A DNA stretch of 30,619 bases from positions 1 to 30,619 of the forward strand of contig JBJXGI010000045.1 in the NCBI GenBank assembly GCA_046153645.1, read 5' to 3'. This document shows positions 1-24,849 of this stretch, piece after piece. This stretch comes from Elusimicrobiota bacterium. GTDB lineage: Bacteria; Elusimicrobiota; Elusimicrobia; F11. Positions within the stretch are counted from its first letter, which is position 1, and the number at the start of each line of letters is the position of its first letter. The position numbers were made by a program, and so were the translations under genes. A model generated the notes under the pieces. The model made no database searches, had not been told where the DNA came from, and saw only the letters and a program-made list of their open reading frames with translations.

Positions 1-3000
1 CCGCAAGATCTAAAGTTCTCGCATTTAAAATATACTCCGTATCATCGGCCCAAGCTGGGGCGGTTATTGACCACGACGTTGTTCCTGTGGTAACCAACCA
101 TGTTGATGAATTAACCACCCAAGCCGATCCATTCCAGAATTCATTTCCGGGAGGATCACGACGAATACGAACTTCATCTCTCAATACACCTGAGAAGGCA
201 TGAACTGGCGCGTCAACGGCAGTACCAGAAATTGTAGGAAGGGGATTGGCTGGAGAATGATAAACACCCACTCCTTGTGGTGTTGTAATGACCGCTGTTC
301 CATAAGCAATATCAAACAAGAAAGTATTTGTGGAACCCGTAGCTTCAAAATTACTCGAACGATCTCCCGCTCGAGCGAATATGGAATACTGCGTTCCATT
401 CACTAATAAAGGCAAAATAGATGCCGTGTTGTAACTCCATGAAACAGATGTGGCATTTTGCGGCACAACAGAAGACGGGACTGTAACATAAGTAGATGAA
501 CTAAAAGCAGCACCATTCCAATAATAAGTATTTCCAGATGAAATATAACTAATCGTTAAATTAACTTGGTTAACACCAGAAAAATCATCTGTCGCTGTTC
601 CATTAAATGAAGTGAAAGTATTATAAGGTTTTTGGTGTTGAGGTATGGAAATGGCCGCAACAGCTGGAACGTTATCATAGAAAAACACGTTGGATGAAAT
701 TCCAACTGTAAATACAGATTGCGTATTTCCCGCGGAGTCAACGCCCCAAGCTAGAACCAAATACTGATTACCTGAAACAAACTGAGAATTAATACTCGCA
801 TCTTCATAAACCCACGTACCAGATGACACCCCTGTAAAGACTGCTGTTCTGGTTGATACAGAAGTCGTAAAGAGAGATCCATTCCAATATTTAACAGGAG
901 AAGTACTAATATTAATAACTTGCAAGTAAACCGCTTGAATAGTGCTGAAATCTAAATTTGGTGCAACTTCAGTTCCTTCGGCTGTTCCGCTAATAGTCGA
1001 CAAAGAATTAAAACCACTATTATGCGCTGGTTGAATAATTCCAGCAATGGGAGGCGTGTTATCAATTTTAAAAGTACTCGTACTAAAAACGTTTTGAATA
1101 TTTTCAGCTGAGTCTCTCGCCTGAGGAATCAGATTAAAAATCCTTCCAGAAGGCCATGAACCGGGGAGTTTATTCCCAGCCGTCGTTAGATTCCATGTCG
1201 CGGAAGTTGTATAAACATCAATAAGATTAGCTGTAATTTGCGTAGACGTATTAATCCATCCTGATAAAGAGCTCCAATACAAATCATCGCCTCCACCCAC
1301 TACAAGATTAGGCCCGAGATCGCGGAGTGTAACATTGACGCCGGCAATTGAACTTGTAATATCAGAGGCGGTTCCTGAAACAGTGGCGAGTGATTGTAAT
1401 GAAGCATTATCGGTGGGCACTGTCACAGCTGAGGTAGGAGGAAGATTATCAACTGTAAACCGGCGCGTTGTTCGAGATTCGGCGTTTCCTAAATTATCTT
1501 CTGCCCAAATCTCCATGAAATATCGATAACCAGAAACCCAGGTTGGGGCGGCGGTAGAAAAAATATTTCCTCCATCAAAATTCAATACTTTAATGACTTC
1601 CCCCACTTCATCAAATGCGCCCGGATATTCCCCATCCCAATACAAATCACCAACATCGGAAACATTATTATTATTATCATCTCGTCGTACTGTAATTTTT
1701 ACTTTTGTGGGATCAACACCAACACTGGCCAATGGAGATGAAGGTAAATCATCAGAAGTAGCAGAAATAGTTAAAAGAGTATTGGTTGTTCCGTTATAAC
1801 CAATTCCTTCTTGAGGCCTTGTTACATTGGACACAGGAGCAGAAGAATCAAACACAAACTGAGAAACAGATTGCTGAGAAGTATTATTCAGCGCATCTAG
1901 CGCAGTGGCCACCATGCGATAGGTGTGACCACTTTGCAACATATCATCAGGATTATCATAACTCCAAGTCACAGCCCCTTGACCTGAAATAGAAATCGAA
2001 ACCGTTGATGATGTCGTTGTAAATGTAGAAACACCGTCCCAATATGTATCTTGATTGGCGCCACTTCCACCAATGGCATGATTATTCCCAAGGTCAATAA
2101 TTTGAAGTTGAATAGAAGACATTCCCACTCGTTTAAGCACGATTGGATAATCTCTGGCTGTTCCTGTAATTTGTGTAAGAGAATTACGAGAAACACTATG
2201 AGCAGGAAGCACCAAAGAAACAATGGGAGCTGAAGAGTCAAAAACAAACACTTGGGATGAAATAACAACTTGCACATTTGAAATAAGATCTGTCGCAGAA
2301 GATCGAACAACATAGGTATGCCCATGGGTTAAAGCAGCATTAAACCCTGTCCCCGCATAAGACCAGGTTCCAGAAGAAGTTCCAGTGAAAGTTGCGTTGA
2401 CAAATGAACTACTGATATCTGCTTCTGAAAAATTCGCGGCCCCTTGAGCCCAATAAAATCCTGTATCTTGATTGTAGATGGATACCTTAACCCCCGTTGA
2501 ACCGATGCCAGCATTTAAATTGTGAGCCAATGGCAATGTGGAAATATCATCTGCGGTTCCTGATAAAGTAGCCAATGAAGAGTAGTAAGGTTCTGCAGAA
2601 TAGATGACCCCACCCGACAGAGGGCGAGTCACACCTGTCACAGGAGAGGTATTATCAAAAGTAAAAGTAGAAGCTCCCGTTGCAAAATCATTTTCCACAT
2701 TTCCAGCTGAATCTGTCGCCTCACTTGTAATGTAATAAGAAGTTCCGGAAACCAAATCATCATTTCCCAAACTCGCTGTTGGATAATTCCAATCAGGTGC
2801 AACAAAAGTAACGCCTGATCGGAAAAGAGGAGAACCACTGGCACTGGTGAAATCGTCATCAATGGCATTCCACCAAAGACCATCATCTAACTTTTTAATG
2901 GCAACACGCATACTAACAACCGGTGAACCCGTATCAGCCGCCGTCCCTAAAATCCCTGACACATTTAAAGAATTAACCACCGAACCAGGAGAGGGATTGG

Positions 3001-6000
3001 TAACGACAGATTGTGGAAGATTGGTATCAAATGTAAAGGTTGAATAAGAAACCGTTGAATAATTCCCAGCCGAATCTTGCACTCGTAATGAAACACCATA
3101 GGATTGCCCTGATACCCATGTAGGAGTAGACCCCGTAAAATACCAGTTCGTAAAACTATTGGTTGATGAAGCAGCAATCCATGCCGTGTTATCATTTAAC
3201 GAAGCATCAGAATCCCAGTTGGGCCCTCCTGGTTCGGCAAGATCCCACCACACATTTCCACCAATATGACGAAGGCGAATTTGAACTTGGGATATAACAC
3301 CAGAACGAGGCCCCCCCGTTGTATCAGCAGCCGTTCCTGAAATGGTATTTAATGAACTTTCATAATCAGCCCCAGGATCGTCAAAAGGTTTTGTTATAAC
3401 ACCTGTTGGAATAGTTGGATCATATACAAAAGTTGAAACAACAACTGCGCTCATATTTTGCGAAACATCACGAGCCCTGGCATGCAACTCATATTGATGC
3501 CCATTTTCCCATGAAGGAATTTGATCCGCGCCAAAAGGATAACTCCATGGAGCTGAAGAAGAAGCCAACGTAATTGTGCTACTCGTTGTACGCCAAGATG
3601 CCACTGTTTGATTAAAACCCGCGGCATTGGTTCCTGAATACCATTTATCTGAATCGCCATCGTCTGCATCAAAAATAGCAACTGAGATTATTTGCAAACC
3701 AGACCGCGGGTTTGCCAACCCATCATTGGCAGTCCCCGACAATACAGTTAAAGTCCCCCCTGCTTGGTAAAGCTGGGAAGGATTTAAAATAGAGCTAACA
3801 ATAGGAGAAGTGGAATCATAAATAAAACTGACAACTGAAGAAGTTGATACATTCCCTGCCAAATCAATAGCCCTGACGCGTAATTGATAATTTTTATTAA
3901 CAAGCCAAGTCGGTGCTGAATAACTCCAACTGGCAAAAGGCGTTGAGATACTAACCCAAGTTGATGAAACCTGATTAAATGAAGTCCCACCCCAATAAAA
4001 ACTATCAGTGACGTTATATAACTCTAATTCTAAACGATTCATACCGGAGTGATTATCAACAGATGTTCCAGTAAAACTGGTTAATGTTTGAGCAGGACCA
4101 TAAGAACCGTTATTGACTGGGACTGAAATGGTTAAGGTTTCGGGTACTGTATTATCAAACAAGAAACTATAACTACCAGGAGTTCCACCCACTTGTGTAT
4201 TTGCAGTCGGGAGAGCGGCATCGGTTCCAAAAATACGAATCGTATAAGTAGATCCACTAATCAGGTTCCCTGATGTGACGAAAGTCGAGGTATAAACAAC
4301 ATTGCCGGTTTGGCCTGTGAATGTTTTTGTATCAATATAAACCTCTGAAACAGAAACAAATGAGCTCCCATTAAAATAATTGTTGTCATGATCACGAATA
4401 GAAAATTTGATATTTCCAAATCCACCCAAATCAGCATTGGCGGTTGCCGAGATTGTGGCCAGTGAGGCAATGGGAGAAGAATTTGGGCGCGTCACTCCCG
4501 AAACGGGAGGAGTTGTATCAATAACAACATTAAATGAAACAGTCTCAGATCCGAGATTGGGCGTTGGCAAAGCGTTATCCCGTGCACGCGCTTTAACAGT
4601 ATAAGCTCGATCAGTGATCCATCCATTCATAACCGTGGGAGGATCCATTTTTAAATTATCAAGCGCATTATATGTCCAAGTTCCTGATGAAGCGCCTAAC
4701 CCAGTGTAACTATCAACTGTTTTCCAAGAAGCGCCTTCAGTGGTGGCACTTGAAAACACTGTTCCATTCCAATAATAAGTTGTGGCCGATATAACGGTGT
4801 AAACCACCACGTCGACATTTGAAGTAGCATTAATACCAGCATTATAGGGATAGTCTGTAGATGTATTATCATCAACTGAGCCTGCAATATTTAACAATTG
4901 ACGCCGAATTGCATTCGAAGTGGGAAGGGATATTGAGATACTGGGAGGCTGATTATCAACTGTAAAAGTGACACTCGAAGTTCCAGACACATAAAGATTA
5001 TTTAAATTTTGAGCCCGATCTTTGGCTGAAACCATGAGCGTAAATGTTTCTTTATTATAAATAGCCTGAGAAAAATCGGGCAAACTAGAATAACTCCAAG
5101 AACTAATATGGAGAGTGGCATTTAAATCAATGGGAGTAGGCCCTGCCTGCCAATCAGCGCCACTCCAGAAAGAGCCGTTTGAATTTCTTTTTAATCTCAA
5201 ATAGACATCGGACACTTGCCCAAGCCCCTGTGCACTTAAATTCTGACCTGCTCCCAATAAATCCGTTACTGGCCCTGAGGCTATTGAAACTGACGAGCGA
5301 ACACTTCCATTGGTGACAGCAGTAATGGTCGCAGTGGGAATTGTAATATCGTATACAACCGTTAATGTTTGTTCTCCGGATTGGTTGCCATCGATCGTAT
5401 TTGTCCCAGAATGGTAAGCGTCATCTTGAGCAAGGTAATAAATTTTATATTTATATCCATTTTGAATCATCGTTGAATAAGCAATCGTATAATTCCAATT
5501 CCATAAATTAGGTGATGCCAAGGAAATATTTGAACTCAAATTAGGGCGCGTCAAAGTAAATGTTGATCCATCCCAATAATAGTCATCTGCGGCCGTGGTA
5601 TCGGCTTTATTGGTTCTTTGAATATCGATTTCCACATTATTAATCCCCGCCAAATTAACTTGATCATTGGCTGTTCCCAAAATTTGGGCAAAGTAGCTGG
5701 TAAAAGCTGTAAGTGGTTGTGAAATAAAAACATCTGGCGCCTGGGTATCAAATCCGAATGTTTGAGAAACTTGAGCTCCTGTTAAAGTGGCTGTATTAAC
5801 TCCACGGGCTCGAACAGTAAAACTGGCTGCATGTATGTACCAATCACCAGAAGCAGGAACCGAAGAATTCCAAGTCCAATTAGGGACAGCTAACGCATTG
5901 GCCCTCGTGTAAGTGGAAGCCGCCACCCATGTTTGAGAAACAGAACTCCAATATTTATTAACAGGAGCACTCAAGCTTTCAATTTGAACTTCGACCACTG

Positions 6001-12000: not shown

Positions 12001-15000
12001 GAGGGGTCGTATTATCAGGTCTTTGAATTCGTGATTCTGGAATAGGTGGTGTATAACTAAATGAAATGCGATTGGTATTGGCTCCTGCTGACGTTGGTCT
12101 TGCCTCAATATTTGAGGCGATATCAATAGCTGAAGATAAAATATCGTAAGTTCCAGCGGCAGGAAAAGTGGGGGTTGAGGTTCCTATTGTATACCAAGTC
12201 ACAGGACTACCAGGAATGGTTGAAGCACTCACCCAATAACTGGACCCTCCACTGGGAGAATCAGGGGGAATAGTCCCCCCCGCATTTAAGTCAAAATCTC
12301 CCGTTATTTTATTCCACCAACGATCTGTTGATTGTCGATAATATGCGACATAAACAGATGAAATGCCTGCACCATCGCTAGCCGTTCCTGAAATGGTATT
12401 AATCGACGAAGGGGATCCACCATGAGAAGGAGAAACAACTTTGGAAATAGGCGCAACAAAATCAGCGGAGAAGACAACCGTTGAATATGATAAATCATAT
12501 TTCAGAGATTTATCCCGAGCGCGAGAACTCGCTTCATAGGTTTCACCCGTCGTCCATGCCGCTGTTGATAAACTCCAAGTCCACGGTCCTGTTCCAGAAG
12601 GAACTTCGTAGTTCCAAGTATTTGAAGTGATATCAGTGACCCAGGAACCAGGGAGACCTCCTGTGATATCTAAATATTTATTATCAGAATAGCGCCTGAC
12701 ACGAGTTTCAATCCGATCAACAACACCAGCGCCTGTATCAGAAGCGGTTCCAGAAATATTTCCTATTTGAGAAATATACCCGCTATTCACAGGAAAGGTA
12801 ATTCGTGTATCAGGGCGGATGACATCATAGGTAAAAGTTTTTGTGGAGAATTGTACGAGAGTTTGGTTTCCACCCGCATCAAAAGCCCGAGCGCGAACAT
12901 CATAACGCGTATCATCAGTCCAATCAGCAAGCGGTGGCATGGCAAAAGTAAAAGCTTCACTGTTAGAATTAAAACTCCCGTCATCCGCTGTCGAAGCGGG
13001 CCAAGAACCTGGTTCAGCCCCTGCCCAACTAAAACCATTCCAATAATTGGTCGAGCCATCATTGTTAAATCGCCGAATCATCACACCAATAGAAGTTAAT
13101 TGTCCACCAACATTGTCTTCTCCATTTCCTGTTGTATAAGGAAAAGTAGAAATAGTATGTAAATCATCTGTGGGATAAGTAATAACACCTCGAGGTCTTT
13201 CCGGAGGCCCGACTTGATACTCGTCCAATGTAAATGTAATCGTTGAAGGAACCACTTCAATATTTGTGGCCCAATCTTTAGCCCGAACAACCAACCTAAA
13301 AGAATTACCTGATAATCCGATTAAAGATGGCATGGCTCTTGTCCATGTTCCACTGGCACCCAAGGCAACATAAGGTGAATAGGCGGCAGTGGTCCAATAA
13401 ACAGAAAGTGCCGGGTCAGAAACCGCCGCGCCATTATCACCTGAAACCCAAGAAGAAGTATTCCAATTATATGTGAGGTCCGATGGTGCTGGTCGGTAAA
13501 CGTGAACATAAACATTCTCTGCTCTTCCAGGATTGGGCCCTGTTCCAACATCGGAAGAAGTTCCACTTAAGGTGGTGAGTCCGTTAATAAAGCTTGCATT
13601 CGTTACATTTGTAATGCGTGAAACAGGTCTTTCTGTATCGTAATTGACTTTGATAATACTACCGCCAGTTCCTGATCCTTCTTGGTTACTGGCAAAATCT
13701 TGAGAACGTGATCTAAACCAATACACTTGACCATTCGTCCAAGGGATGGACGGTGTCGCCGTAGAAAAGTTGGGCGTTGCAAAAAGAGAAGAAAACCAAG
13801 TAGGAGATCCAACAGCATTAAAACTTGATCCATCCCAGTAAAGTCCGCTTCCATCTCCAACAACATCCCCTTGTTTTATATACATATCAACCAATTGAAC
13901 AAGACCTGGGCTCGTATCAGCAGCCGTTCCACCGAGAGAGGTAATCGAATTATAAGCCGAATTATTAGCCAGACTTGAAGCGGCGCCTCCATTTCTTTTG
14001 TCCAACAAGGTGGTAGGCGTTGTAACGTCCCAAGTAAATGTTTTGGTTTGATCTGCCCCAGGCGCTGTATTCCCTGTGTTTCCCGATCCATCAGTCGCTC
14101 TTACTTTTACTGTGTAATCACGAGCATCCACAAAACCAATCGATGTTGAAACAGTGTGTTGCCAATTAGACCCTCCGGCCGGAGAAGCAGGAACCCAAGA
14201 TTCCACACTACTCCAAGCCGTTCCCGTCCAATACCGACAGCTGGCGTCCCCAGGGCAAGACCCTGCCGATTTACTGGAAATCTGAACTTCAACCAATGAA
14301 ACAGATTGCACATTATCGGAGGCCGTTGCAGAAATCGTGGGAAGCGAGTTTCGATACGATTGAAGAGGGACCGTGATTCTGGCATCAGGCGCTTGTACGT
14401 CCACAGTAAATGAATTAGATGCCACCCCGACAGTAAAAGAATTTTGAACATTCGTAGCCCGATCTTGCGCTCGAGTGACAAGCAAGAAATAATTCCCATT
14501 AAAACTACTCATATCAGGAGTGGGGACACTCCAACTTGAAGCAAACACACACACATCAGGCCAATCTGTTGGAATCGTTGTAACCCAAGCCCCCGTCCAA
14601 AGTGGATTTTGACTGGCATCATAATCTGGCTTCCAATATTGAGCAGGGTTAACAGATTGGTTTGATAATAAATATTCAATACGACTCGTTGTTAATGTAT
14701 TGTCATTCCGGTTTAAACACGTAGGGTTGGTCACAACACCGGAAGCACCATCATAATATCCCCCATAAAAAGTTGCCGAACCGGTCAAATAACTAGAAGG
14801 AGGAAAACCGCCTGTTCCTGGAACCGTAATAGACGTCGTTGGACGAACCACGTCCCACATAAATGTATTAGTTGTAAAGGTAACTTCATAGTTCCCTGGA
14901 TCAGGGGTTACTTTATCGTTGGCTCTTGAATAAATAGCATAATCTCGCCCCGTCACTAATTGTGAATCGTCACTTAATGTGGTTGTCCAGGTTATTGATG

Positions 15001-16290
15001 GGTTGCCGGCGATGGTTTCAGTTGTATTATTCCAATGCTCCGACATGCTATTGAATAAACCAGCGCTATTATTCCACCATTGGTTTGATGTCAAATCTTT
15101 AAGGGCATATTCCACAACATCAATCCCACCTTGGTTATTATCCTGAGCAGTTCCTGTAATATTGCTCAAGCTATTAATATATCCACCATCGATAGGACCA
15201 GTTACCACTGAATTCGGACGTTCCGGAGAAGCTTGATAAACATCGTAAGTAAATGTGGCTGTTGAATAAGCTGTCGACACATTACTCGCCCTGTCATATG
15301 CTCTGGCTTCAATACGATATCGAATATTATTCGTCCACGTGGGAGAAGTAAAACTCCAAGAAGTGCTTCCATTTAATGGCGTCCAATTATTGGTTCCCGT
15401 ACTAATATAAGTTGCGCCAATTTCATCATAAATCCGAATTTCGATTCCCGTCGAAGTTCGAAGGCCAAAATTGTCACTGGCAGTCCCACTGATCGTTGTT
15501 AATGAAGAAAGCCAGGACGGTGCAGCAGTATCAGGAGCAATAATTCCAATTGTGGGAATAGCGTTGTCATAAATAAAAGTAAATGTCGTCGGATTGGTTT
15601 GGTAGGACCCTGTTCCATCTTTTCCACGAACCCGAACATAATAACTGGTATTTGAAAAAGTGAGGCCCGCACTTAATGTGTTATAGGCCCACGTATCCCA
15701 GGGAGTGGGGTTACTGGCTGTTGACGATGCTGTAATCCAATACTCGCTGACCGTTGTCCATCCCGGGAGTGTCGGGTCCCACCAGGCATTGGGTATTGTG
15801 TCACGTCGAATACTGATTTCAACAGAAGTCACTCCAACATAATTATCAACGGACGTTCCCGAAATGGTGGGGGCTGAATTCACATATTGACCTTCACTGT
15901 GAGATGTCACCGTCGCCGTAGGAGCACTGATATCATAACTAAAAGTAAAAGTTGAAAAAGTTGTGGCTAAATTTCCTTGAATATCTTGCGCTCTGACATT
16001 AATCGTATAGTCTCTCGCATCTGTCCAGGTTGCGGTAGGATAACTCACTGTATAAGTCCAAGAGGATGTATGAAGAGATGCACTAAACCAAGTATCAGAA
16101 CCACTCCATGCAGCTCCGGTCCAATAATTATTATCTGTAGCTCTTTTTAGTCTTAGTTGGACAATACTTGTTCCGCTATTATTGGTGCTTCCATCCGAAT
16201 GGATTCCTGATAAAATTATAAGCGAATTATACTGACCTAAATGGGCAGGAACTTGAATAGCGCTGGTTGGCGCAGTAACATCTCGAGACC
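1..16290 (-). repeat. Array of ~43 degenerate Ig-like (bacterial Ig/Big-type) domains, ~108-151 aa each
   Basis: Counted by hand from domain-start motifs, e.g. DVTAPT ~16283, YDISAPT ~15935, FDNTAPV ~8671, FDTQAPD ~5749, FDSSAPV ~1848, IDNTPPI ~1063. Mean spacing ~380 nt. The repeats are visible at protein level only, not as DNA tandem repeats. Confidence 0.8.
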
Positions 16291-19045
16291 AGGCAAAAGA
16301 AACAGGTTCAAAACCGTACAAGATATTAAAAGTGCGTCTGAGCATCGAACTTCCTAAATAATTTGCCGCAGGTGAAACCGACCAGGGATCTCCGTCCCAT
16401 GTAAATCCCAACATGTTTCCATAATAAGTATCGACGTAAATATTGATGTTATCTGAATAGGGATCAGCATAGGCTTTGATATTTTCAGGAATTCCTTGTG
16501 TATCAGGAACAGTGCCCGGAACTGTCCAGGTAGAAGCTCCGACTCTCCACCAAGCGTTTCTGAGATTTGTTGCGCTATTATCTGCAGCAAAGGCGACGAC
16601 TTGATCCCCATTCCCTTCCCAGGCAATATCAAAGGATCCTTTATTGGTCACATCTCTTAGTGATGCCCATAACCGAGAAACTTGTCCGCCACTAGAAGTG
16701 GTACCCCATGTCGTAGAAGTGCTCCACCACACATTAACGTAAAGATCTGAAAGATTAGTGGCAGCGGCCATAGCAATATTATTTGAGTTTGGTTGAGCTG
16801 TTAATTTAATTTGATAAATACGAGTTGTTGCCAGAGAATCTACGTCTCTCCCCGCATAACCGGGACCAGCAGGGACATCCCATGTAGTGGCAGATGAAAC
16901 CCAAAACGCATAGCGGAAAGTATCATTATTATCTTCTGCCCAAACCACCATCGCACGGGAATTAGTAGATTCATAAACAACATCAAAAGGTTGATATCGT
17001 GGCACATTGGCCCCACCAGCCCTTTCAGCACTACTCGTAATTTGTTGAATATTTCCAAAAGCAGAACCATCCCACACATAACCAAAAATATCAGGAGAGG
17101 CTTGGTTATCAAGCGTCAAAACAACAATCTCATTTGAAGAAAAACCAGGGTTTGACTCTGTTGTAATCCACCATGGCGTTCCGACCTGCCCCCCAGTTCC
17201 AGGAGCATCTTGTTCAGCACTCCAACTTCCGGATCCTGATGGATCCCATATTCGATATTTAGGCGGTGAAGACCCAACTTTTGTATATACAAGTAAGGCC
17301 TCTCCAGAGGCATTCTCATAAGAAATGTCAAACGATCTCGAAAAATTAAAATCAGAAGCGCCACCAGCCCCTAAACCCGTCGCTATTTGAGAACCGCTGC
17401 TCCATCCGGAACCACTTCGCCAAGAATAAGCCGTTAAAGTTCCACTGGAGTCTAACACCGCCATTAATTTTTCGTCGCGACGAGGAGAAGCTTTAATAAC
17501 TGAATATCGAATCGCCCCCGGCACCTCTGAGCCCGGGTTGGTTTCAGTGGAATATCCCGAAAAACCATATTGTTTGATATTGGGTCGCCCCGTGTATTCC
17601 GCATAAACAAGTAAGTTTCTGTCGAAAGCAAAAGGACGATAATAATCGAAGGTGATTTGGTTACTTTGTTTACTAAAGGTTCCAAGGGTTCGAGCACTGG
17701 CATTGTAGCTTCCTATATATAAAGCAGGTTCACGGCGAACACCGGCTGCTGTAGCCGCATAACTTTCTCTGGCCACAACAGCCATTTGAATTTCATTTGT
17801 AGAGGTACCGGTAGATGTGATAATAATTCCATCATAGTTAGAGATATTAGAGTCAACTGCCGGAATAACTACTGGTTCACCCGACCAACCTGAACCGGTC
17901 CATTGATTACAACGAACTGAATTCGTTAAAGCCGCTTCCACATAACAAACGACAAATGAACTGAGCTGCGTGGTCCAAGCTCCATCAAACATTGCTCCCT
18001 GATGCAAAACTGCGGTTAAATTTGTTTCTAAATTATCTGTCCAATTAACAAAGGCAGCCCCGTCCCAAACTGCCCCTGATATATCATAGCTAGCGCCTGT
18101 TTCTTGAATAATAAGACCAATTCTATCTGTACCTGCCTGCGGAACAGCGCGAAACCAACTGGAATCAACTCCCATATTGCTACCATCCGCGGCAGCCGGT
18201 GTGCTCCAAGCCGAACCATTCCAGAGATCTCCTTGCGGAGTAGTGTTTCCATCAATACCATACCAAACATACAAATCACCACTTAATTGCTCATACGCAA
18301 TGTCGAAGTTTCTTAACGTTGAATACTCTGCAGTGCTAGTAAATGTTCTGGTATTAGCAAAAGCAGACCCATTAAATGTGGCGCCGGAAATATCATTGTT
18401 GGCATCAATCGTTACAACTGCCACTTCTGTTGACCGACTTACCAAAGGACATTTCTCCGCTCTCACCCAATAAATTCTGCCGGCATCATTTGTCCCCCAT
18501 GTAGTGGCCCCACTCCAACTGGCTCCATCCCAAGTCACAAATTGCATATGATTAGTTCCCAGCGTATTTGTAGGATGAGGGAAAAATATAGTCGCGGCAT
18601 TAGAAGAATATGCGACATCAAAAAATCGATAAATACCAAAACCAAAATTGGATTTATCTGTGTCGGTAAAATCATCGGTGAGCGATTGAACGTTCCCCCA
18701 CTGAGTTCCATCCCACACCTGAGCCACCAACCGGCATTGAGAATCTAACGTCACCATGATTTTTTCATTAGGCCGATCACCACCACTCGGAGCAGATTTT
18801 ACGACGACATGTGTAATAACGCCCTTGTTGGGTTCAGACCCTGGTGCTGTTTCAGCACCTTTATAACCGGTATCCCACGTGGTTCCAGTAAAACTACTAA
18901 TAGTGACTCTTACATCACCGCCAGCCGAAATTAAATGCCCCTCTGTTGTAGCAAAAGAGTTTTTATTCAATAACGAAATCAAAGAAATAAAAACCAAAAA
19001 GGTTTTTAGAAAAAAAGAAACGAAGTTTCGTTTCATTTTTCTCAT
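1..19045 (-). CDS. Giant secreted/surface repeat protein (>=6,348 aa, 3'-truncated by window edge): signal peptide + tandem beta-propeller-like domains + ~43 Ig-like repeats
   Basis: ATG at 19045 (in-frame alternative 19036) gives MRKMKRNFVSFFLKTFLVFISLISLLNKNSFA|TTEGH..., a Sec-type signal peptide. The same frame reads ...PAWADDTEYILNARTLDLA at the window's first bases. The ORF track lists no stop-terminated ORF in this frame, and spot translations throughout are open and repeat-like. Recurrent motif: (F/Y)DxxxP...ISGTAxD...YWxGxxW/F...WxY...YxxxxRAxDxAGN...TFTFD. Confidence 0.93.
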   Translation of the reverse strand, partial: MRKMKRNFVSFFLKTFLVFISLISLLNKNSFATTEGHLISAGGDVRVTISSFTGTTWDTGYKGAETAPGSEPNKGVITHVVVKSAPSGGDRPNEKIMVTLDSQCRLVAQVWDGTQWGNVQSLTDDFTDTDKSNFGFGIYRFFDVAYSSNAATIFFPHPTNTLGTNHMQFVTWDGASWSGATTWGTNDAGRIYWVRAEKCPLVSRSTEVAVVTIDANNDISGATFNGSAFANTRTFTSTAEYSTLRNFDIAYEQLSGDLYVWYGIDGNTTPQGDLWNGSAWSTPAAADGSNMGVDSSWFRAVPQAGTDRIGLIIQETGASYDISGAVWDGAAFVNWTDNLETNLTAVLHQGAMFDGAWTTQLSSFVVCYVEAALTNSVRCNQWTGSGWSGEPVVIPAVDSNISNYDGIIITSTGTSTNEIQMAVVARESYAATAAGVRREPALYIGSYNASARTLGTFSKQSNQITFDYYRPFAFDRNLLVYAEYTGRPNIKQYGFSGYSTETNPGSEVPGAIRYSVIKASPRRDEKLMAVLDSSGTLTAYSWRSGSGWSSGSQIATGLGAGGASDFNFSRSFDISYENASGEALLVYTKVGSSPPKYRIWDPSGSGSWSAEQDAPGTGGQVGTPWWITTESNPGFSSNEIVVLTLDNQASPDIFGYVWDGSAFGNIQQITSSAERAGGANVPRYQPFDVVYESTNSRAMVVWAEDNNDTFRYAFWVSSATTWDVPAGPGYAGRDVDSLATTRIYQIKLTAQPNSNNIAMAAATNLSDLYVNVWWSTSTTWGTTSSGGQVSRLWASLRDVTNKGSFDIAWEGNGDQVVAFAADNSATNLRNAWWRVGASTWTVPGTVPDTQGIPENIKAYADPYSDNINIYVDTYYGNMLGFTWDGDPWSVSPAANYLGSSMLRRTFNILYGFEPVSFAWSRDVTAPTSAIQVPAHLGQYNSLIILSGIHSDGSTNNSGTSIVQLRLKRATDNNYWTGAAWSGSDTWFSASLHTSSWTYTVSYPTATWTDARDYTINVRAQDIQGNLATTFSTFTFSYDISAPTATVTSHSEGQYVNSAPTISGTSVDNYVGVTSVEISIRRDTIPNAWWDPTLPGWTTVSEYWITASSTASNPTPWDTWAYNTLSAGLTFSNTSYYVRVRGKDGTGSYQTNPTTFTFIYDNAIPTIGIIAPDTAAPSWLSSLTTISGTASDNFGLRTSTGIEIRIYDEIGATYISTGTNNWTPLNGSTSWSFTSPTWTNNIRYRIEARAYDRASNVSTAYSTATFTYDVYQASPERPNSVVTGPIDGGYINSLSNITGTAQDNNQGGIDVVEYALKDLTSNQWWNNSAGLFNSMSEHWNNTTETIAGNPSITWTTTLSDDSQLVTGRDYAIYSRANDKVTPDPGNYEVTFTTNTFMWDVVRPTTSITVPGTGGFPPSSYLTGSATFYGGYYDGASGVVTNPTCLNRNDNTLTTSRIEYLLSNQSVNPAQYWKPDYDASQNPLWTGAWVTTIPTDWPDVCVFASSWSVPTPDMSSFNGNYFLLVTRAQDRATNVQNSFTVGVASNSFTVDVQAPDARITVPLQSYRNSLPTISATASDNVQSVSLVEVQISSKSAGSCPGDASCRYWTGTAWSSVESWVPASPAGGSNWQHTVSTSIGFVDARDYTVKVRATDGSGNTGNTAPGADQTKTFTWDVTTPTTLLDKRNGGAASSLANNSAYNSITSLGGTAADTSPGLVQLVDMYIKQGDVVGDGSGLYWDGSSFNAVGSPTWFSSLFATPNFSTATPSIPWTNGQVYWFRSRSQDFASNQEGSGTGGSIIKVNYDTERPVSRITNVTNASFINGLTTLSGTSSDVGTGPNPGRAENVYVHVYRPAPSDLTYNWNTSSWVSGDNGAAVSDPALSVYWTTAAYSPYVALGASGTWTRAMPSLIGLSGNSFRLVVRAKDWATNIEVVPSTITFTLDEYQVGPPERPRGVITYPTDDLHTISTFPYTTGNGEDNVGGQLTSIGVMIRRFNNDGSTNYWNGFSWAGAEPGSWPASTADDGSFNSNSEAFTFAMPPLADWTDDTRYDVRARAFDAGGNQTLVQFSTKTFTYDVIRPDTRITFPVNSGYISQIGNISGTASDTGAGVVDRIETRVRRYSDNKYLDITGGLPGSWVTDITSNTWNYEVPSGTGPWTWSLSTAAWTTGETYEASSRARDKSLKYDLSYSTVVFSADFVAPISKVVSPSHGGSPSSINTISGTASDGAGISSVYVAYYRQSTDRWWNKITGDFDLNAGGTIPPDSPSGGSSYWVSASTIPGSPVTWYTIGTSTPTFPAAGTYDILSSAIDIASNIEARPTSAGANTNRISFSYTPPIPESRIQRPDNTTPHFRASLAAVSGTANSVATGVSFRMKDITISASHLTWNGTAFVSTVTFNGFVGSTYTFPTWSYTVPASSFTNLGKYQIESQALGSPNESPFQGPNEFYIDDTNPTAAVLMPDVDYKKTLPTLSGTAADNADGLTGAQKTVYFRLRRTVPSTQYWVSISSSWVADGGVNCLSAIDDSCLTATSGGGNNYSITHSSFTDLQAFEAGKAYTVSIVVRDRATNGTTVNKTFTWDTTSPTSGITRPSGSSPVNSLPTLSGTASDNFQVLAASVSLQSLKNDKCFDPGTNFFTANCPYWIDTSTDGSANWQYSNANINVRLGESNTWYVMLSKVKDVATNEQSGFSAGVSSVAFIADTQVPIVGVTFPAHNGNYKGTQVGGGGSPLTGTVSDPNSPWNSGIRRVQTRVSYLLANDTWYWQPADIKFSSGAAVSASGWFNAANTDWEYFGSFTWNASDTQYRLEARSEDASFLADGAATGNTSVPSGVGSDIVDFIIDDTPPTVGIVTPSSAFLQNLTLISGTANATLSGLNNLQIRISTGVGSPYYWTGSSWTTTVTWLNTILDSQTVWHYDVSSFMVADTTYTVSARALDNAGNYSTVFSTRIFTVDLTTPTAAITYPVNGNVYSAVQVSTPIAGTASDAGSFASQLSTVTISLRDLTDVDDFNGTAFAGGGPFNLGANGGVITSWQYNSGNLVLENDHQYRLTARAVDNAGNSVTTSNVTFQYDVEIPTSSITSPVAGYVTSLTSIAGTASDERFGARNYEAKLGTYTIGVAFYDSVAIKWWDGSSFDGAGPTYFEVVNTTTAFPNTWSYSVPGALQSALIDGRTYRIVPRAVDLAANAEFASSTAPAGIGINVIYDPNAPAVSIVTPNDATPADDNSPRLSTMSILSGNPYFGGSTADGTGTGVNLVQVRIYKSDPARYWTFGIDYSVSAYTIDTSLADTAWFTATTTNSFANWYTTFTFLTDYKYHLEVRARDQAGNYSTTFATASFIFDQNIPQSGITLPVNGSIIKSFTQIEGTMSETGVRYLGTVSPVKLAIKENTSGLWWDDLAGTFSLAGPPTTDNVTLYSSSWAFTGIVQGDLTSGVSYYMTSRAYDNAAPVNNETFYSVRSATFTFDNTAPVVVLNSPSDGIFFNNSTALISSGTAIDATSGVQTVQVNINNGSQYWSGTHNAAGNFTGSVNYVTADFSGNPNWIFTIPIAQLNEDFVHNTTYYVQARAWDIAGTTSAFTAVKTIVYDVGSPTSTVTSPVNYINASQTVISGTAIDNPARVATVQLAISSSASGSNGTWYNGTGFTANFGDGGTYRSTILTQNGAGAGIDLWTFSRPTLEQGKTYLVRLITTDTAGNVRTQTIGESVTLIYDENDPTAFIQDPNQAYEKSLPTISGTSQDSNTAITQVQVAISTGTSAPYTDQFWNGSSWVAGPSITWLSASATDGSFNSTSEDWYFTGSTPTWVNNKIYKVHVRPVDSAGNNTTVVVSTFTYDNTPAVSAVVVPSNLSAYRALALVTGTMSDSPNPAPQTVEIALRHPNATFWDGATFIGDDLNPVWLSAASVFGSSWTFTNLPSSWDDRTIYKLFVRAIDLANNSVANPDFANTGRQFRIDYSSPVSKVSSLSTVTTNYVNGPISSVSGTASDLAGGAGINTVNIRVLRSDGNYLNAAENGFNGASSNFPLTTTNGTSWSKTFSDPPSAIFEDGYAYTIQSRATDLSSPTNTEQTFTSAYFVVDQSSPTSAVVSAQGGYFNNSLTTLSGTLADAGTAPGNIASSVQYIDLKIFDGSEMGNPWWDGTSWVAGTISTRAVVYSSTWVYNNVPGDWSHGTGVDSRWYQFHVRAVDYAGNTQSYAIITSTYDVRPGTAVILTPNTAIVSALPTISGTATDSVFGTNSLANVEISIQRDSDNRWFRFSDDTWNPSGSNIWNSVDSYNGGNGNWNIDTSAPGIWENLVGYGIYVRALDKAGNYQSSQVYPSTFSFVFQPPASVVAINKPIANKFYRLNLSEITGTANAATTVVEVQIESLSAPVNKYWSSVSQTWVAASTYTRANALAVPNWTWNSSVPASGDWYIHAASFTVRARGVNTATLTGAQVSQTFGFDTQAPDVFISQPLTAFTSYFAQILGTANDQVNLAGINNVEIDIQRTNKADTTAADDYYWDGSTFTLTRPNLSSNISLASPNLWNWNYTIAYSTMIQNGYKYKIYYLAQDDAYHSGTNTIDGNQSGEQTLTVVYDITIPTATITAVTNGSVRSSVSIASGPVTDLLGAGQNLSAQGLGQVSDVYLRLKRNSNGSFWSGADWQAGPTPIDLNATLHISSWSYSSLPDFSQAIYNKETFTLMVSAKDRAQNLNNLYVSGTSSVTFTVDNQPPSISISLPTSNAIRRQLLNIAGSVDDNTSTDYPYNAGINATSNVDVVVYTVISATTYYWNGTVFSSATTEGASWKTVDSYTGLGASSGTWTYNALDNLKMDPPTVMNGWITDRAYTVKARARDNALPTPNLGSETVSFNVVIDTTPPVSGVTRPNSSPIASLATISATANADLGGFGNIKFSIRDHDNNYFNGSSFVSVSEVYIDTKTFTGQTGNVVYTSTFVTSGNLISGSTYTIRIFGTDAALPTANTQVGGTPGSYSFLFDNTVPETLTISVPVNNGSYGPAQTLTSFTGTSVDNHSGMNRLELELYNVTDSFYWGGTSFNQVSSTWVSISTPFASWSYSAPTWLVNKNYQLRVRAIDLAGNVSTSSVVSFIYDSTSPIVSSILNPSQLYQAGGTLTVLSGTANDGLANPRSGLQIISVAIFDADDGDSDKWYSGTNAAGFNQTVASWRTTSSTITLASSSAPWSYPFGADQIPSWENGHQYELHARARDVSQNMSAVVVSTFVYDPTIPTGVITKPFDDPGADYESSLNTISGTAADTTGGPRSGVISQVQIRLRHIGGNVWWDLAEPGGPNWDSDASLNDNTAWIAASSTNSFTNWYFTGSTPTWVSGQSYGVSLRVQDSAGNYSTVSYSTFTFDTNLPQSVVTNPSPGSVVNSLNVSGILGTAADTGSPVVSMRVAIKKLDDGLWWNAIDDDFTSASGSPLFRSGVTFVAPDWNYPTASLGNDDLVSGTSYYITSEATDSAGNVENDFATGASTFTFDNTSPVTGVTRPLSGGVIYSAEPYYSSLATLSGTADDISTLPLAHNLNAGIGSTGVKVSIYNQDTGFYWAQGAANFSEADISSSFVNATFTGTSSGTWSYAGTGFNAALTHGHTYVVRSSATDLISNVQVVISSQVFVFDSSAPIVSLVLPAHSVSRNSLTQITGTARDYPIVLKRVGMSSIQLQIIDLGNNHAIGGSGANQDTYWDGVSTFTTTSSTVSISISGQGAVTWSYDNPDDMLQSGHTYRMVATALDALNNTSQQSVSQFVFDSSAPVSNVTRPQEGIGYNGTTNTLLTISATSDDLPSSPLASVGVDPTKVKITVRRDDNNNNVSDVGDLYWDGEYPGAFDEVGEVIKVLNFDGGNIFSTAAPTWVSGYRYFMEIWAEDNLGNAESRTTRRFTVDNLPPTSAVTVPTDNASLQSLATVSGTASDITSSIAGVNVTLRDLGPNLVVGGGDDLYWSSLSGWINTSTQITANLIDVYTTSATWNLTTAGNKLPGSWPSGRIFNLIPQARDSAENIQNVFSTSTFKIDNTPPIAGIIQPAHNSGFNSLSTISGTAEGTEVAPNLDFSTIQAVYLQVINISTSPVKYWNGSLFTTSVSTRTAVFTGVSSGTWVYEDASINSQFVSGNQYLVLAWGVDSAGNTQSVFTVGISSNVFFYDNVPAVAAISIPQHQKPYNTFTSFNGTATDDFSGVNQVNLTISYISSGNTYYWNGAAFSSSTYVTVPSSVVPQNATSVSWSYNTASILPLLVNGTQYSIFARAGDRSSNFEATGSTNTFLFDIAYGTAVITTPQGVGVYHSPANPLPTISGTAVDAPVHAFSGVLRDEVRIRRDPPGNEFWNGSAWVVNSSTWLVTTGTTSWSITAPAWADDTEYILNARTLDLA
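16290..18950 (-). repeat. Two tandem ~430-aa Trp-rich beta-propeller-like units in the giant protein N-terminus
   Basis: Internal duplication: VVKSAPSGGDRPNEKIMVTLDSQCRLVAQVWDGTQW (~18800-18700) vs VIKASPRRDEKLMAVLDSSGTLTAYSWRSGSGW (~17500-17400). Recurrent blade-like motifs FDVAYS/FDIAYE/FDISYE/FDVVYE/FDIAWE and WDGxxW/F. Confidence 0.65.
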
Positions 19046-19764
19046 TTTTCTTCACCTGCCATTTTTCGAACACTGAGATCAGAATCTTTTCGAAGTTGTT
19101 TGAGTAACTTTTTGGCTTCTGGTGTATGGAATTGTTTGACAGAAAAAGAAATTTGCCGTCTTAAATCGGCATTGGAATCTTGGGAAAATTTTTCTAAAGA
19201 TAAAAAGGCTTCTTTCGAATGGCGCGCCACACCCAACGAAAGCGCTGCTGCTAAACGAACAGACATATCCTGATCTTTTTCTAAAGCAAAACCAAGAGCA
19301 GAAATAACATCAGGATTTGACACATAATTTCCTAAATCTTGAGCAGCTCCTTGACGCACAACCGCTGAAGCGTCATTTCTTAAATTTGTGATCAAAACAT
19401 CTTTCGCGGCCCCTAAATCGTTTTTAACCAAGGCTTGCTGAAGTTTTAATTTTTGAAGGGGTTTTTTCTCACTTAAAATCATTTGACTTATTTTTCTTTC
19501 AGAAACAGGCGCTAAACCGGAGCGGGCAGCTTCCATGGCGCCTAAACGTTCACCTGGATTTTTACTTTCTAAGGCTTGCTCGGCAGTGAGAGGTCGAAAA
19601 TTATTTTGGGCGAAAAGAATGGAGCCACAGGAAACGAATACAAACGAGAAGAGCATTAAACCGGTTGAACAAACTTCGAGAGAGGAAAAAATAAATTTCA
19701 CGTACGCCTGCGCGCGCGCGAAAATATTATTTTTATATATATACAAGTTTGAAAAATTTCTCAC
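19042..19764 (-). CDS. HEAT/PBS-lyase-like repeat protein with N-terminal hydrophobic (signal/anchor) segment
   Basis: Repeats LRNDASAVVRQGAAQDLG, LEKDQDMSVRLAAALSLG, SQDSNADLRRQISFSV, RKDSDLSVRKMA. Hydrophobic segment GLMLFSFVFVSCGSILFA. GTG start with GAGGAG 7 nt upstream. The stop overlaps the giant gene start (ATGA). Confidence 0.85.
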   Translation of the reverse strand: MRNFSNLYIYKNNIFARAQAYVKFIFSSLEVCSTGLMLFSFVFVSCGSILFAQNNFRPLTAEQALESKNPGERLGAMEAARSGLAPVSERKISQMILSEKKPLQKLKLQQALVKNDLGAAKDVLITNLRNDASAVVRQGAAQDLGNYVSNPDVISALGFALEKDQDMSVRLAAALSLGVARHSKEAFLSLEKFSQDSNADLRRQISFSVKQFHTPEAKKLLKQLRKDSDLSVRKMAGEEK

Positions 19765-19769
19765 TAATA

Positions 19770-19868
19770 AACTCCTCTTCGCTTAAAACCAAGAACTGCA
19801 GGAAACATAACTCATCCCCAAAAAATGGGATAACGTAATACAACGGCTGCACGAAGCGAAGAGGAATC
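19770..19868 (-). promoter_or_regulatory. Structured intergenic RNA sequestering the Shine-Dalgarno of the HEAT gene
   Basis: Perfect 12-bp inverted repeat tcctcttcgctt (19773-19784) / aagcgaagagga (19854-19865), extendable to 15 bp on the mRNA with G-U pairs. Inner stems UGCAG/CUGCA (19847-19851/19797-19801) and UUAUCCC/GGGAUGA. The 3' arm contains GAGGAG (19772-19777). Confidence 0.75.
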
Positions 19869-20379
19869 AGAGAAGAAGGCGAGTCGAAGCAATAATAAAT
19901 CGGTGATAACTTCTAAAACTGTTTACATCAAACATAAAATGGGATTTTAACTGAGCCGAAGCGTGAAAGGACTGACTAACAATAAAAATATTTTTTAATA
20001 ACTGAGATGAAAAGAAAAAATAAATATTTTGATAAAGTTTTTTAACAAGAGATTGAAAACGTTCGAAATTCTGAGACAAACCTTCATGAAAAAGAACAAT
20101 CCATTTTTGTTTTAGTGGAGACAAGTTTTCTAAAAAAATATTTTTAATTTTGCTAGAAAAATAATCCTCGAAGTTTTGTTTTAACGTTTTATTTTCGACA
20201 GGACGATTGAATTCATCACGGATATCTAAATCACTCCAATCCATAAATTCAGTCGGGAGAGATAAAAAATACGACCCAGAAATAAATAATTTTTCAGACG
20301 CTTTCACTGGAGAAAAGCCCGTCATGAATAATGCGAAAAATAGCATTGTTTTTATAATTGATTTAATTTCCATACCCAT
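19867..20379 (-). CDS. Hypothetical secreted leader protein (~170 aa), candidate regulatory upstream ORF
   Basis: MGMEIKSIIKTMLFFALFMTGFSPVKA|SE looks like a signal peptide. No recognisable domain; ends ...HRFIIASTRLLL*. The track's TTG start at 20415 coincides with a -35-like box, so ATG 20379 (or 20373) is preferred. Confidence 0.7.
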   Translation of the reverse strand: MGMEIKSIIKTMLFFALFMTGFSPVKASEKLFISGSYFLSLPTEFMDWSDLDIRDEFNRPVENKTLKQNFEDYFSSKIKNIFLENLSPLKQKWIVLFHEGLSQNFERFQSLVKKLYQNIYFFFSSQLLKNIFIVSQSFHASAQLKSHFMFDVNSFRSYHRFIIASTRLLL

Positions 20380-20387
20380 ATAGGTCA

Positions 20388-20415
20388 AATGTAACGGAGT
20401 TGGGTAAAAAGTCAA
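20388..20415 (-). promoter_or_regulatory. Putative sigma70 promoter for the leader-HEAT-giant gene operon
   Basis: TTGACT (20415-20410), 16 nt, TACATT (20393-20388), ending 8 nt before ATG 20379. A second TTGACA at 20444-20439 has only a weak -10 (AATCAT). Confidence 0.5.
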
Positions 20416-20536
20416 ATGATTTTATTATGAAATTTTTATGTCAACTTAGAGATGAGAAATACTTATGCGTCTTATTTGAGAGGTGTTTTTTGTTTAGTTG
20501 TTTTTTTATCTAAAAATTAAAGATTAAAAATAAAAT

Positions 20537-23815: not shown

Positions 23816-24226
23816 TTATCTATCTAAAAGAGTAACAATCCAGTCTCTATATCGAACTAATTTCTTCCACATCATTTCGATATCTTTTTTTGCATAAATT
23901 TCACCACTATAGGAAACCAAATTTTTCTGGTTGATCAGATCAGAAAAATGCCTGAGAGAATTTAAAGAGTTTTCACTGAGATTTACGACTTCTCGGACCA
24001 AATCAATCGCCGCCATATGATCTTCGCCTTTTGACTTAACACCACCCACTTTAATTGTGAGAGCATCTGTATAAGCAATTGCCGCATGAACGATCAAAAC
24101 CCCCGCAGCATTCCAGTACTCAAACTCTTTAGCAGCTTCTGCCCCTTGAAAAAAATTTTCTGCCACTTGTTTAAAATCTTTATATTTTGATCGGTCCTGT
24201 GATTGACGCAACGTTCGTTTTACCAT
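23816..24226 (-). CDS. HEPN-domain protein (putative toxin of an MNT-HEPN pair)
   Basis: Helical ~136-aa protein with NAAGVLIVHAAIAYTDAL, GEDH and KNLVSY, overlapping the stop of the upstream nucleotidyltransferase. ATG 24226 (TTG 24238 also in frame). Confidence 0.75.
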   Translation of the reverse strand: MVKRTLRQSQDRSKYKDFKQVAENFFQGAEAAKEFEYWNAAGVLIVHAAIAYTDALTIKVGGVKSKGEDHMAAIDLVREVVNLSENSLNSLRHFSDLINQKNLVSYSGEIYAKKDIEMMWKKLVRYRDWIVTLLDR

Positions 24227-24849
24227 TGAGCGACCCAATCCTTCAATTTAAGCGTAAGTAAATCTTTCCCTTCATTAATAATATTCACCAAAAGAGGATC
24301 TTTTTTAAGAATTCTCCTTTTAGTTTCCCCGCTTGTCATCAGAATAGGAGCAAGTCGAATTCCAAACTTAATTCTAAAATCGGTAACAATATCCAGAAGA
24401 TTTATTTCCTGATCAACAACAGATTTTTTTAAAACAACCAACACGTCTAAGTCGCTTCCAGGTTTATTTTTATTTTTTACAAAACTCCCGAATACCGTTA
24501 TGGTCAAACTTCTATTTTTGAAATATTTCCGTATAGAAAGAAAAATTTTCTGAAGTAAAACCTGCTCTTTCTCAAAAAGCGGCAATAACAATTCACGGAC
24601 AAATTTATTATCCATATTTATACGAACCAGTTGTGTTTGAGCAGACCCCTGTCTTTTAATAATCCCTTGAGATTCCAAATTTTTTAGCACAACCGCCACC
24701 GTTTGATGATTTACATTTGCTACACGACTGACACTGCGACCACTCATTCCTTCTCGACTATCTTTGAGCGAACGCAGAACAATTAAGTGATTTCGAGTTC
24801 CCAAAATACCATCTAATGGATAATTCATATGAAGAGGGGATCTAACCAT
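24220..24849 (-). CDS. Winged-HTH + minimal nucleotidyltransferase (MNT) protein, putative antitoxin/autorepressor
   Basis: N-terminal HTH (MSGRSVSRVANVNHQTVAVVLKNLESQGII) and GSx10DxD motif (FGSFVKNKNKPGSDLDVLVV). Confidence 0.88.
   Translation of the reverse strand: MVRSPLHMNYPLDGILGTRNHLIVLRSLKDSREGMSGRSVSRVANVNHQTVAVVLKNLESQGIIKRQGSAQTQLVRINMDNKFVRELLLPLFEKEQVLLQKIFLSIRKYFKNRSLTITVFGSFVKNKNKPGSDLDVLVVLKKSVVDQEINLLDIVTDFRIKFGIRLAPILMTSGETKRRILKKDPLLVNIINEGKDLLTLKLKDWVAQW

Follow-up and report, generated by a model that had tools for sequence, protein, structure and literature searches.

The DNA analysed here, referred to as the window, is a stretch of 30,619 nucleotides that makes up the entire contig C37 (JBJXGI010000045.1) of the 2.6-Mb genome of an Elusimicrobiota bacterium (assembly GCA_046153645.1). 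On its minus strand lie, in order of transcription, folD (assigned through Pfam), a leader open reading frame (ORF) of 168-170 residues (19867..20379) belonging to an unnamed Elusimicrobiota family, a spacer of 102 nt, a HEAT-repeat gene that starts with GTG (19042..19764; Pfam HEAT_2, E 1.4e-14), and the 5' part of a giant gene (2..19045), which overlaps the HEAT stop codon through the sequence ATGA. The leader ORF, a stem extending from its stop codon to the GAGGAG of the next gene, the HEAT gene, the ATGA overlap and the giant ORF of at least 6,348 codons, still open at the contig end, had been described in an initial annotation of this DNA, and all are present. Judged from sequence, the leader and the hairpin probably form a switch that decides when the giant protein is made.

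The leader begins with a signal-peptide-like segment (20299..20373, from sequence and a hydrophobicity rule), carries a core, DLDxRDxxNRP (20200..20232), that lies 121 residues before the C-terminus and whose R-D pair is invariant in an alignment of 79 rows, and ends in the octapeptide IASTRLLL (19870..19893), a candidate arrest motif that is conserved among homologs. In the predicted fold of the spacer, the 5' arm of the stem (19854..19868), which would pair against the HEAT gene's Shine-Dalgarno (SD) sequence, has its first base inside the leader stop codon TGA, and the 3' arm (19770..19784) includes that SD sequence, GAGGAG (19772-19777), 7 nt ahead of the GTG. Nested inner helices fill the interval between the arms (19797..19851), the innermost hairpin (19833-19812) being a weak terminator-like match. 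Directly before the leader lies a probable sigma70-type promoter, TTGACT-16-TACATT (20388..20415), from which a very short 5' untranslated region would result; six of the 8 same-family loci have this pattern at the corresponding place, and near matches were seen by eye in the other two. Given this conservation, the leader start is placed at ATG 20379 or 20373, and not at TTG 20415. A second promoter-like sequence, TTGACA-17-AATCAT (20416..20444), was not seen conserved in same-family loci, and promoter-like sites in the window are at chance level (5 observed, 4.7 expected).

Spread of the leader, the HEAT gene and the giant gene

Within a sample of 401 Elusimicrobiota genomes, the leader was matched in 32 with a 6-row profile and in 66 with a 79-row profile, always as a single copy, and no match was obtained in three large families (f7, 0/118; f18, 0/89; f14, 0/47). 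A search of 1.84 billion representatives recovered 196 leader protein clusters. Conserved N- and C-terminal parts are joined by a variable linker within a near-fixed length: among the best 150 representatives the distance from the core (DLDxRD) to the end is 118-126 residues in 127, with 12 lacking a core match and 11 falling outside the range. A hydrophobic 11-mer (Kyte-Doolittle value of at least 2) stands at the N-terminus of 94 of 105 full-length homologs, and about 140 residues separate the signal from the C-terminal motif. The commonest ends in the best 150 of the 196 clusters are LLR (42), LRC (35), ILR (24) and LLL (10). The end consensus is [LI]SSTxLLR-stop in the window's family and [LIM]RC-stop elsewhere; 24 loci outside that family end in [LIM]RC (21), RL (2) or RV (1). 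A tree of the leaders, from which the last 10 residues were excluded, clusters by host family.

The family is unassigned by Pfam and NCBIfam, its best ESM Atlas hit (0.81) carries no family, and Foldseek returned no match against the PDB; the predicted model is helical, with a predicted local distance difference test score (pLDDT) of 80, a predicted template modelling score (pTM) of 0.40 and no compact fold. Scans with a close alignment of leaders confirmed 1 of 116 candidates in genomes and 0 of 182 in metagenomes. A literature search located no published description of the family, although the upstream-ORF supplements of PMC10987492 and PMC9973294, which it did not cover, could bear on novelty, and 'Elusimicrob' is absent from the searched text of PMC10987492, PMC7897499 and 10.64898/2026.10.26.761930.

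The arrangement of leader, HEAT gene and giant gene is real and is conserved well beyond the window, so that homologs of the leader, and the synteny that the initial annotation had put forward as a check, are now established across the phylum. Long flanks were examined for 40 of the 66 leader matches. A HEAT gene was recognised after the leader at 39 of 51 loci, and 4 of the 12 misses had less than 1.3 kb of DNA; the HEAT profile was made from 26 of these loci and has Pfam support as well. The order folD-leader-HEAT-giant holds in all five same-family genomes with HEAT homologs, and in 25 of 28 loci no more than 20 nt separate the HEAT gene from the giant gene. The HEAT protein, with its extended N-terminal region and signal-like hydrophobic stretch, is probably exported. 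Twenty-nine loci offered 12 kb or more of downstream DNA; in 27 of them an ORF of 2,900 residues or more lies on the leader's strand, the other two having a fragmented giant homolog (G271) and an open ORF of 7,103 residues farther along (G105). One locus with an assembly gap, after which LRC-stop is readable, was left out of these counts. The leader always stands at the head of the operon, even where extra genes have been inserted.

Complete relatives of the giant protein have 14,811, 14,935, 17,295 and 17,343 residues. The window giant has Ig-like repeats (Big_13, E 4.9e-6) and appears from its sequence to be secreted; it is colinear with most of the first ~6,270 residues of the 14,811-residue relative at 54-62% identity (40% in the first aligned stretch), and the repeat region matches 85 of the 401 genomes. 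No second half could be located in the same assembly, and at full length the protein probably has about 15,000 residues. Relatives share a common C-terminus, which in G010 matches FlgD_ig (27.1 bits, cut-off 27) and is followed by a gene of the PorV family (NF033709, 118.9 bits, cut-off 90); the features resembling cargo of a type IX secretion system are thus read from G010, the C-terminus of the window giant being unassembled.

A number of observations concern the giant gene and its surroundings in other loci. It is split into 2 to ~20 ORFs in G201 (L094, L124, L125), G271 (L091, L134), G008 (8,031+8,005 residues) and G032 (13,707+1,113 residues), through either sequencing frameshifts or real decay. 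Genes for radical-SAM/B12 proteins and glycosyl-transferases are inserted between leader and giant in L085, L086, L088 and L093, which suggests that the giant protein is modified. In L083, L084, L086, L088, L091 and L042 the first gene after the leader codes for 75-95 residues starting MKY(K/R/I)I, one such gene being a weak match to HicB-like proteins (E 0.004). The window's own genome has further very long ORFs (10,189, 8,738, 7,736, 6,624 and 5,710 residues) on C86, C79, C38, C87, C6, C29 and other contigs. In none of 13 that were checked does the upstream DNA hold an ORF resembling the leader or the CG element described below, and a search of the genome for paralogous leaders found none; the leader therefore does not guard these other giant genes. 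Contig C81 carries PorV-family+TPR and FliG-like+TPR genes and then MotA/MotB-like genes (by eye), the gene set that follows the giant in relatives (C81:1840-10691 and L137:8884-12635), and this set may be a motor-linked export module; a sub-threshold match resembling a cyclic di-GMP (c-di-GMP)-I riboswitch (32.8 bits) lies at C81:1667-1746. On C43 (4966-11869) an ORF of 1,842 residues with a similar C-terminal domain precedes another PorV-like gene, and the genome holds ~15 weaker PorV-TPR homologs.

Constraint at the leader's end and predicted pairing of the spacer

The last codons of the leader are conserved in a manner that points to both the peptide and the RNA. Across 50 loci, position -3 is always Leu, Ile or Met, with all six Leu codons in use, and Arg at -2 is encoded by CGC, CGT, CGG, AGG and AGA. 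The ratio of nonsynonymous to synonymous substitution rates (seven groups planned, four of them not computed) is 0.17 (g45) and 0.07 (g4 of family f1) in the last 8 codons, compared with 0.41 and 0.40 in the linker. In f1 the proportion of synonymous differences (pS) is also reduced in the last 8 codons (0.40 vs 0.73-0.79), leaders ending in Cys use TGT in 24 of 25 testable loci (6.6 expected), and TAG is the stop codon of 0/50 leaders compared with 132 of 1,000 own-genome genes (13%). Because these codons are constrained as nucleotides, part of the end motif may be RNA and not peptide, and the motif appears to be under both peptide-level and RNA-level constraint. In several loci the last leader codons themselves make up the anti-SD arm, and the end motif is also retained in loci that have no predicted stem. 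Around the stop codon, C exceeds G by at least 0.15 in 32 of 50 loci, compared with ~5% in each of two control sets (335 and 1,489 stops), a composition that would suit either an anti-SD arm or a Rho utilization (rut) site.

The predicted pairing is clear in the window itself. The spacer folds at -39.6 kcal/mol (z -2.9 and -3.1; 1 of 200 shuffles equally stable), and opening the SD sequence costs 17.9 kcal/mol, or 6.8 when a ribosome at the leader stop is simulated by masking the sequence from the leader end to stop+12, a relief of 11.1. Among 93 gene pairs of the same genome, one SD sequence is equally closed and none equally relieved. In the 36 of 50 loci where the downstream start satisfied a fixed rule, the median opening cost is 8.6 kcal/mol, compared with 4.8 in the 93 pairs; relief of at least 2 kcal/mol is seen in 18/36 loci and in 6/93 pairs. 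Relief tops all 11 composition-matched shuffles in 15/36 loci (3 expected), and therefore is not universal; the opening cost does so in 8/36 (3 expected). The zone of the ribosome-binding site pairs with stop-15..+12 in 20/36 loci (the start of L002 altered by hand), through arms that differ in sequence and position. The spacer pairing thus looks conserved in function without alignable structure. The SD-sequestering stem of the initial annotation is in this sense clear in the window and recurs elsewhere as SD-hiding pairing between unrelated sequences, but only around half of the loci show a detectable stem.

That the leader acts in cis as a regulator is highly probable. The reading that we prefer, and consider somewhat better than evenly supported by the sequences, is that it represents a new family of stop-proximal arrest-peptide attenuators that gates the giant operon. 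The leader would be exported by way of its signal peptide, and by the time its last codons are translated the conserved core would be some 120 residues out, far enough to have entered the periplasm; a fixed reach of ~120 residues is what a sensor acting as a nascent chain needs. The C-terminal motif would then arrest translation at the stop codon or immediately ahead of it. A ribosome in that position masks the anti-SD arm in silico and so exposes the HEAT SD sequence; it may additionally cover a C-rich tract on which Rho would load. Translation of the HEAT gene would pass to the giant gene through the stop-start overlap, which is itself observed. The dwell time could be set by the fate of the exported core, either because pulling or folding releases the ribosome or because a periplasmic partner prolongs the arrest. 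Within this scheme, sequence-specific arrest by the leader is fairly likely, and its tuning by the state of export or of the envelope could equally well be right or wrong.

The RNA-level signals invite a plainer account without any arrest, in which a ribosome finishing the leader briefly melts the stem, so that the giant would come only from mRNAs on which the leader has been translated, and which are perhaps docked at the membrane already by its signal peptide. The end motif would then for the most part merely reflect the RNA arm, or would serve as a degradation tag. The use of the last codons as anti-SD arm, the TGT bias, the avoidance of TAG and the depressed pS in f1 are all in keeping with such coupling; it does not account, however, for the retention of Arg through both CGN and AGR codons and of Leu through both CTN and TTR, for the presence of the motif in loci without a predicted stem, or for the fixed distance of 118-126 residues, and we regard it as unlikely.

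A possible Rho route, the c-di-GMP riboswitch and loci without a detected leader

Several candidate control layers are absent from the initial annotation, namely a (CG)n element, a possible Rho route and a c-di-GMP riboswitch. The first consists of a T-tract followed by a strictly alternating CG-rich run, 60-330 nt past the leader stop and usually early in the first downstream gene, be it HEAT or giant; in the window it occupies 19709..19724, at about codons 14-19 of the HEAT gene, and resembles a pause site. A purine-pyrimidine run with at least four CG is present in 35 of 50 loci, compared with 4% of 1,897 background windows, and CGCGCGCGCG occurs 3 times in the window's own genome. As a resemblance only, the (CG)n run fits the pause consensus G-10/Y-1/G+1 and the preceding T-tract is like the T-tract pause motif of NusG (PMC12288461). 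The element persists in some of the f14 loci in which no leader was detected.

If, as at tnaC or cruR, Rho were the dominant agent, a C-rich rut site would be shielded by a ribosome arrested at the leader stop, failing which Rho would terminate transcription at the pause before 45-50 kb are copied, with the stem playing a secondary role. Rho is encoded in the genome, and the C excess at 32 of 50 stops, the pause-like element and a C-run after the leader stop in stem-less f13 loci would fit this scheme. On the other hand, an anti-SD arm needs C-richness too, and in the window the excess of C over G is just 0.17 and the C-rich tract is predicted to be paired, when rut sites are unstructured (PMC9426467). 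Dominance of Rho is quite unlikely, although a Rho route is compatible with the arrest-peptide attenuator and does not exclude it. Other control features were tried and set aside. Inspection spoke against -1 frameshifting at the T-tract/(CG)n element, because its slippery heptamer is inconsistent; a tentative boxA reading of CGYTGTTRA (28/50 leaders), for which the searched text of PMC12360218 gave no confirmation, does not fit the LLR family; and a search for a dedicated NusG paralog for antitermination found only one NusG. A terminator-like hairpin with a U-run lies over the first codons of the giant gene in the window (19006-19043, minus strand, z -3.2); as a part of the system it was rejected, with z of -2 or below in 3 of 28 loci only.

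The remaining layer is a c-di-GMP-I riboswitch (Rfam CL00126), which 30 of the 37 genomes from outside the window's family carry on the leader's strand, upstream of it. Most of those measured end 130-290 nt before the leader core, the exceptions lying at 428 nt and 1.26 kb. No such riboswitch was found in the window or in the 8 same-family loci, and an Rfam scan of the window control region gave no match at gathering level; the window therefore represents a leader-only version, and in most lineages the riboswitch would sit on top of the leader control. The genome nonetheless uses a c-di-GMP-I riboswitch elsewhere, as one (50.9 bits) precedes a gene for a secreted protein at L139 (C30:20191-20282, minus strand). 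This protein has a stretch that we take to be FecR-like.

A check for missed leaders in 20 giant-positive genomes without a listed leader match yielded 4 divergent LRC-stop leaders, 13 genomes, all of f14, in which none was seen, and 3 that were uninformative. Family f14 keeps the giant gene, the HEAT gene and the riboswitch, the last present in all 7 loci scanned, in several of them with a terminator-like hairpin seen by eye, while the leader was not detected in any of the 13 genomes examined. This pattern is as expected of a swappable control module and favours a regulatory role of the leader over a structural one. An ordinary accessory protein, small and exported (a chaperone or anchor of the giant, first in its operon, with a stem that sets stoichiometry only), would be in line with the well-conserved core, the helical model at pLDDT 80 (though pTM 0.40) and the single copy tied to the giant gene, yet it is very unlikely in view of the 13 f14 loci with a giant but no detected leader, the lack of a compact fold or PDB match, the leader's fixed place at the operon head despite gene insertions, and the stop-anchored motif and stem that it leaves unexplained.

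Outside this operon, the window carries on its minus strand (23816-24849) a helix-turn-helix and nucleotidyltransferase gene (Pfam NTP_transf_2) overlapping a gene for 140 residues without a Pfam match, presumably a pair of the MNT-HEPN toxin-antitoxin kind.

Known leaders, objections and meaning

Monitoring substrates have been sought as ORFs of 80-200 residues and unknown function upstream of sec or yidC genes, with an N-terminal signal or transmembrane segment and a conserved C-terminus more than 40 residues from the signal (PMC7897499). The leader has three of these four sequence features and the size part of the fourth. At 168-170 residues it lacks a Pfam or NCBIfam family, its N-terminus is signal-like by the hydrophobicity rule, and its conserved end lies well beyond 40 residues from the signal. 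No sec or yidC gene was found directly downstream, where the genes scanned code for HEAT, giant, HicB-like, glycosyl-transferase and radical-SAM proteins. The likeness to an exported monitoring leader drawn in the initial annotation is to this extent upheld. The upstream ORF, putative export signal, conserved C-terminus and long spacer, and as a prediction (clear in the window and seen in 15-20 of 36 scored loci) the SD-hiding stem, have counterparts in SecM-secA, VemP-secDF2, MifM-yidC2, ApcA/ApdA/ApdP, RQH, uA_NSP-stop and uDF_DGMK-stop (PMC7897499, PMC10987492, 10.64898/2026.10.26.761930), and motifs adjacent to the stop have precedent there. Unlike these, the leader shows no sequence family match to them and has another motif (the RAGP/RAPP-like motif of SecM, ApcA, ApdA, ApdP and RQH was not found in the C-termini of 150 representatives and 50 loci), a conserved core at fixed distance to the end, a riboswitch on top, and HEAT and giant cargo downstream in place of sec or yidC.

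It had also been claimed that known cases regulate export machinery only. This is incorrect, since the multicopper oxidase CutO is under the control of CutF, and the receptor BfrG under that of CruR (PMC9973294, PMC9426467). CutF-cutO of Rhodobacter is the closest in logic: the proposal there is that the periplasmic portion of an exported leader tunes stalling and unfolds a stem by which the ribosome-binding site of a non-translocon gene is occluded (PMC9973294). CutF-like proteins are defined there as having fewer than 150 residues, PP in the last 15 residues and Cys/His metal sites; the leader, by contrast, is longer (~170 residues), does not conserve a PP and carries an acidic DLDxRD core, and the short length, terminal PP and Cys/His metal motif of CutF/CruR-like leaders were not found in it. 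In CruR-bfrG and TnaC-tnaA long downstream genes are controlled by a ribosome that halts close to the stop of the leader (PMC9426467, PMC12360218), and the C-rich tract near the stop, though predicted to be paired in the window, and the presence of Rho would be points in common, but CruR uses CXXC/RAPP with a dispensable signal peptide (PMC9426467) and TnaC is a cytoplasmic sensor of 24 residues (PMC12360218). By the features tested, the leader would work like a monitoring substrate yet is a member of none of the SecM, MifM, VemP, RQH, CutF or CruR families.

A number of points weigh against the arrest-peptide reading. The motif is unlike the RAPP-like, LPPP, NSP/NAP-stop, DGMK-stop and KYxIW arrest motifs (PMC10987492). 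The register of the end motif differs among lineages (LRC vs LLR); the window's own leader is a long, compositionally biased branch whose end has drifted to LLL; in group g25 the C-terminal 8 codons are not conserved (proportion of nonsynonymous differences 0.40, 2 sequences); and the TGT preference is a constraint at the level of RNA. The fixed rule identified no downstream start in 14 of 50 loci, no clear relief is seen in about half of those scored, including most of seven close f13 relatives, and the loci compared include kin and hence are not independent. Stalling when export is jammed would, moreover, be paradoxical for a cargo. Since logic of the SecM type would raise cargo when export fails, logic of the CutF type, or negative feedback by a product of the operon, would be more sensible.

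A more ambitious version of the proposal is tentative, and the balance tilts against it. Here, a phylum-wide LRC/LLR-stop arrest peptide, sensitive to force or to a partner, would probe the outer-membrane export or display site with a nascent chain of fixed length threaded through the translocon, and would license a surface protein of 14,000-17,000 residues only at that place and moment, as a second gate after a c-di-GMP riboswitch and before a conserved transcription pause. The state of the envelope would then govern a cargo instead of the export machinery.

Very large secreted proteins are reported to be enriched in Elusimicrobiota, and giant genes have been described from Omnitrophota and Elusimicrobiota (10.1101/2023.11.21.568195, PMC11573180); the located text of these two sources describes no leader, riboswitch or translational control. 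Giants of Omnitrophota are reported downstream of loci resembling type II secretion systems, whereas relatives of the leader-linked giant share a C-terminus that scores as FlgD-Ig in G010, with a gene of the PorV family behind it. Together with its end motif, the leader serves as a marker by which orthologous giant-gene loci can be recognised in fragmented genomes, and the locus provides a compact element amenable to tests in PURE or in Escherichia coli reporters, with no culturing of the host needed. The wider question is how bacteria commit to a gene of 45-50 kb and a protein of ~1.5 MDa. If the arrest-peptide attenuator is real, it would add a new arrest motif, bring giant surface proteins, next to translocon and metal genes, under the control of leaders, and exemplify a stacked control that combines riboswitch and leader in most lineages, with the leader only in the window's family and the riboswitch only in f14.

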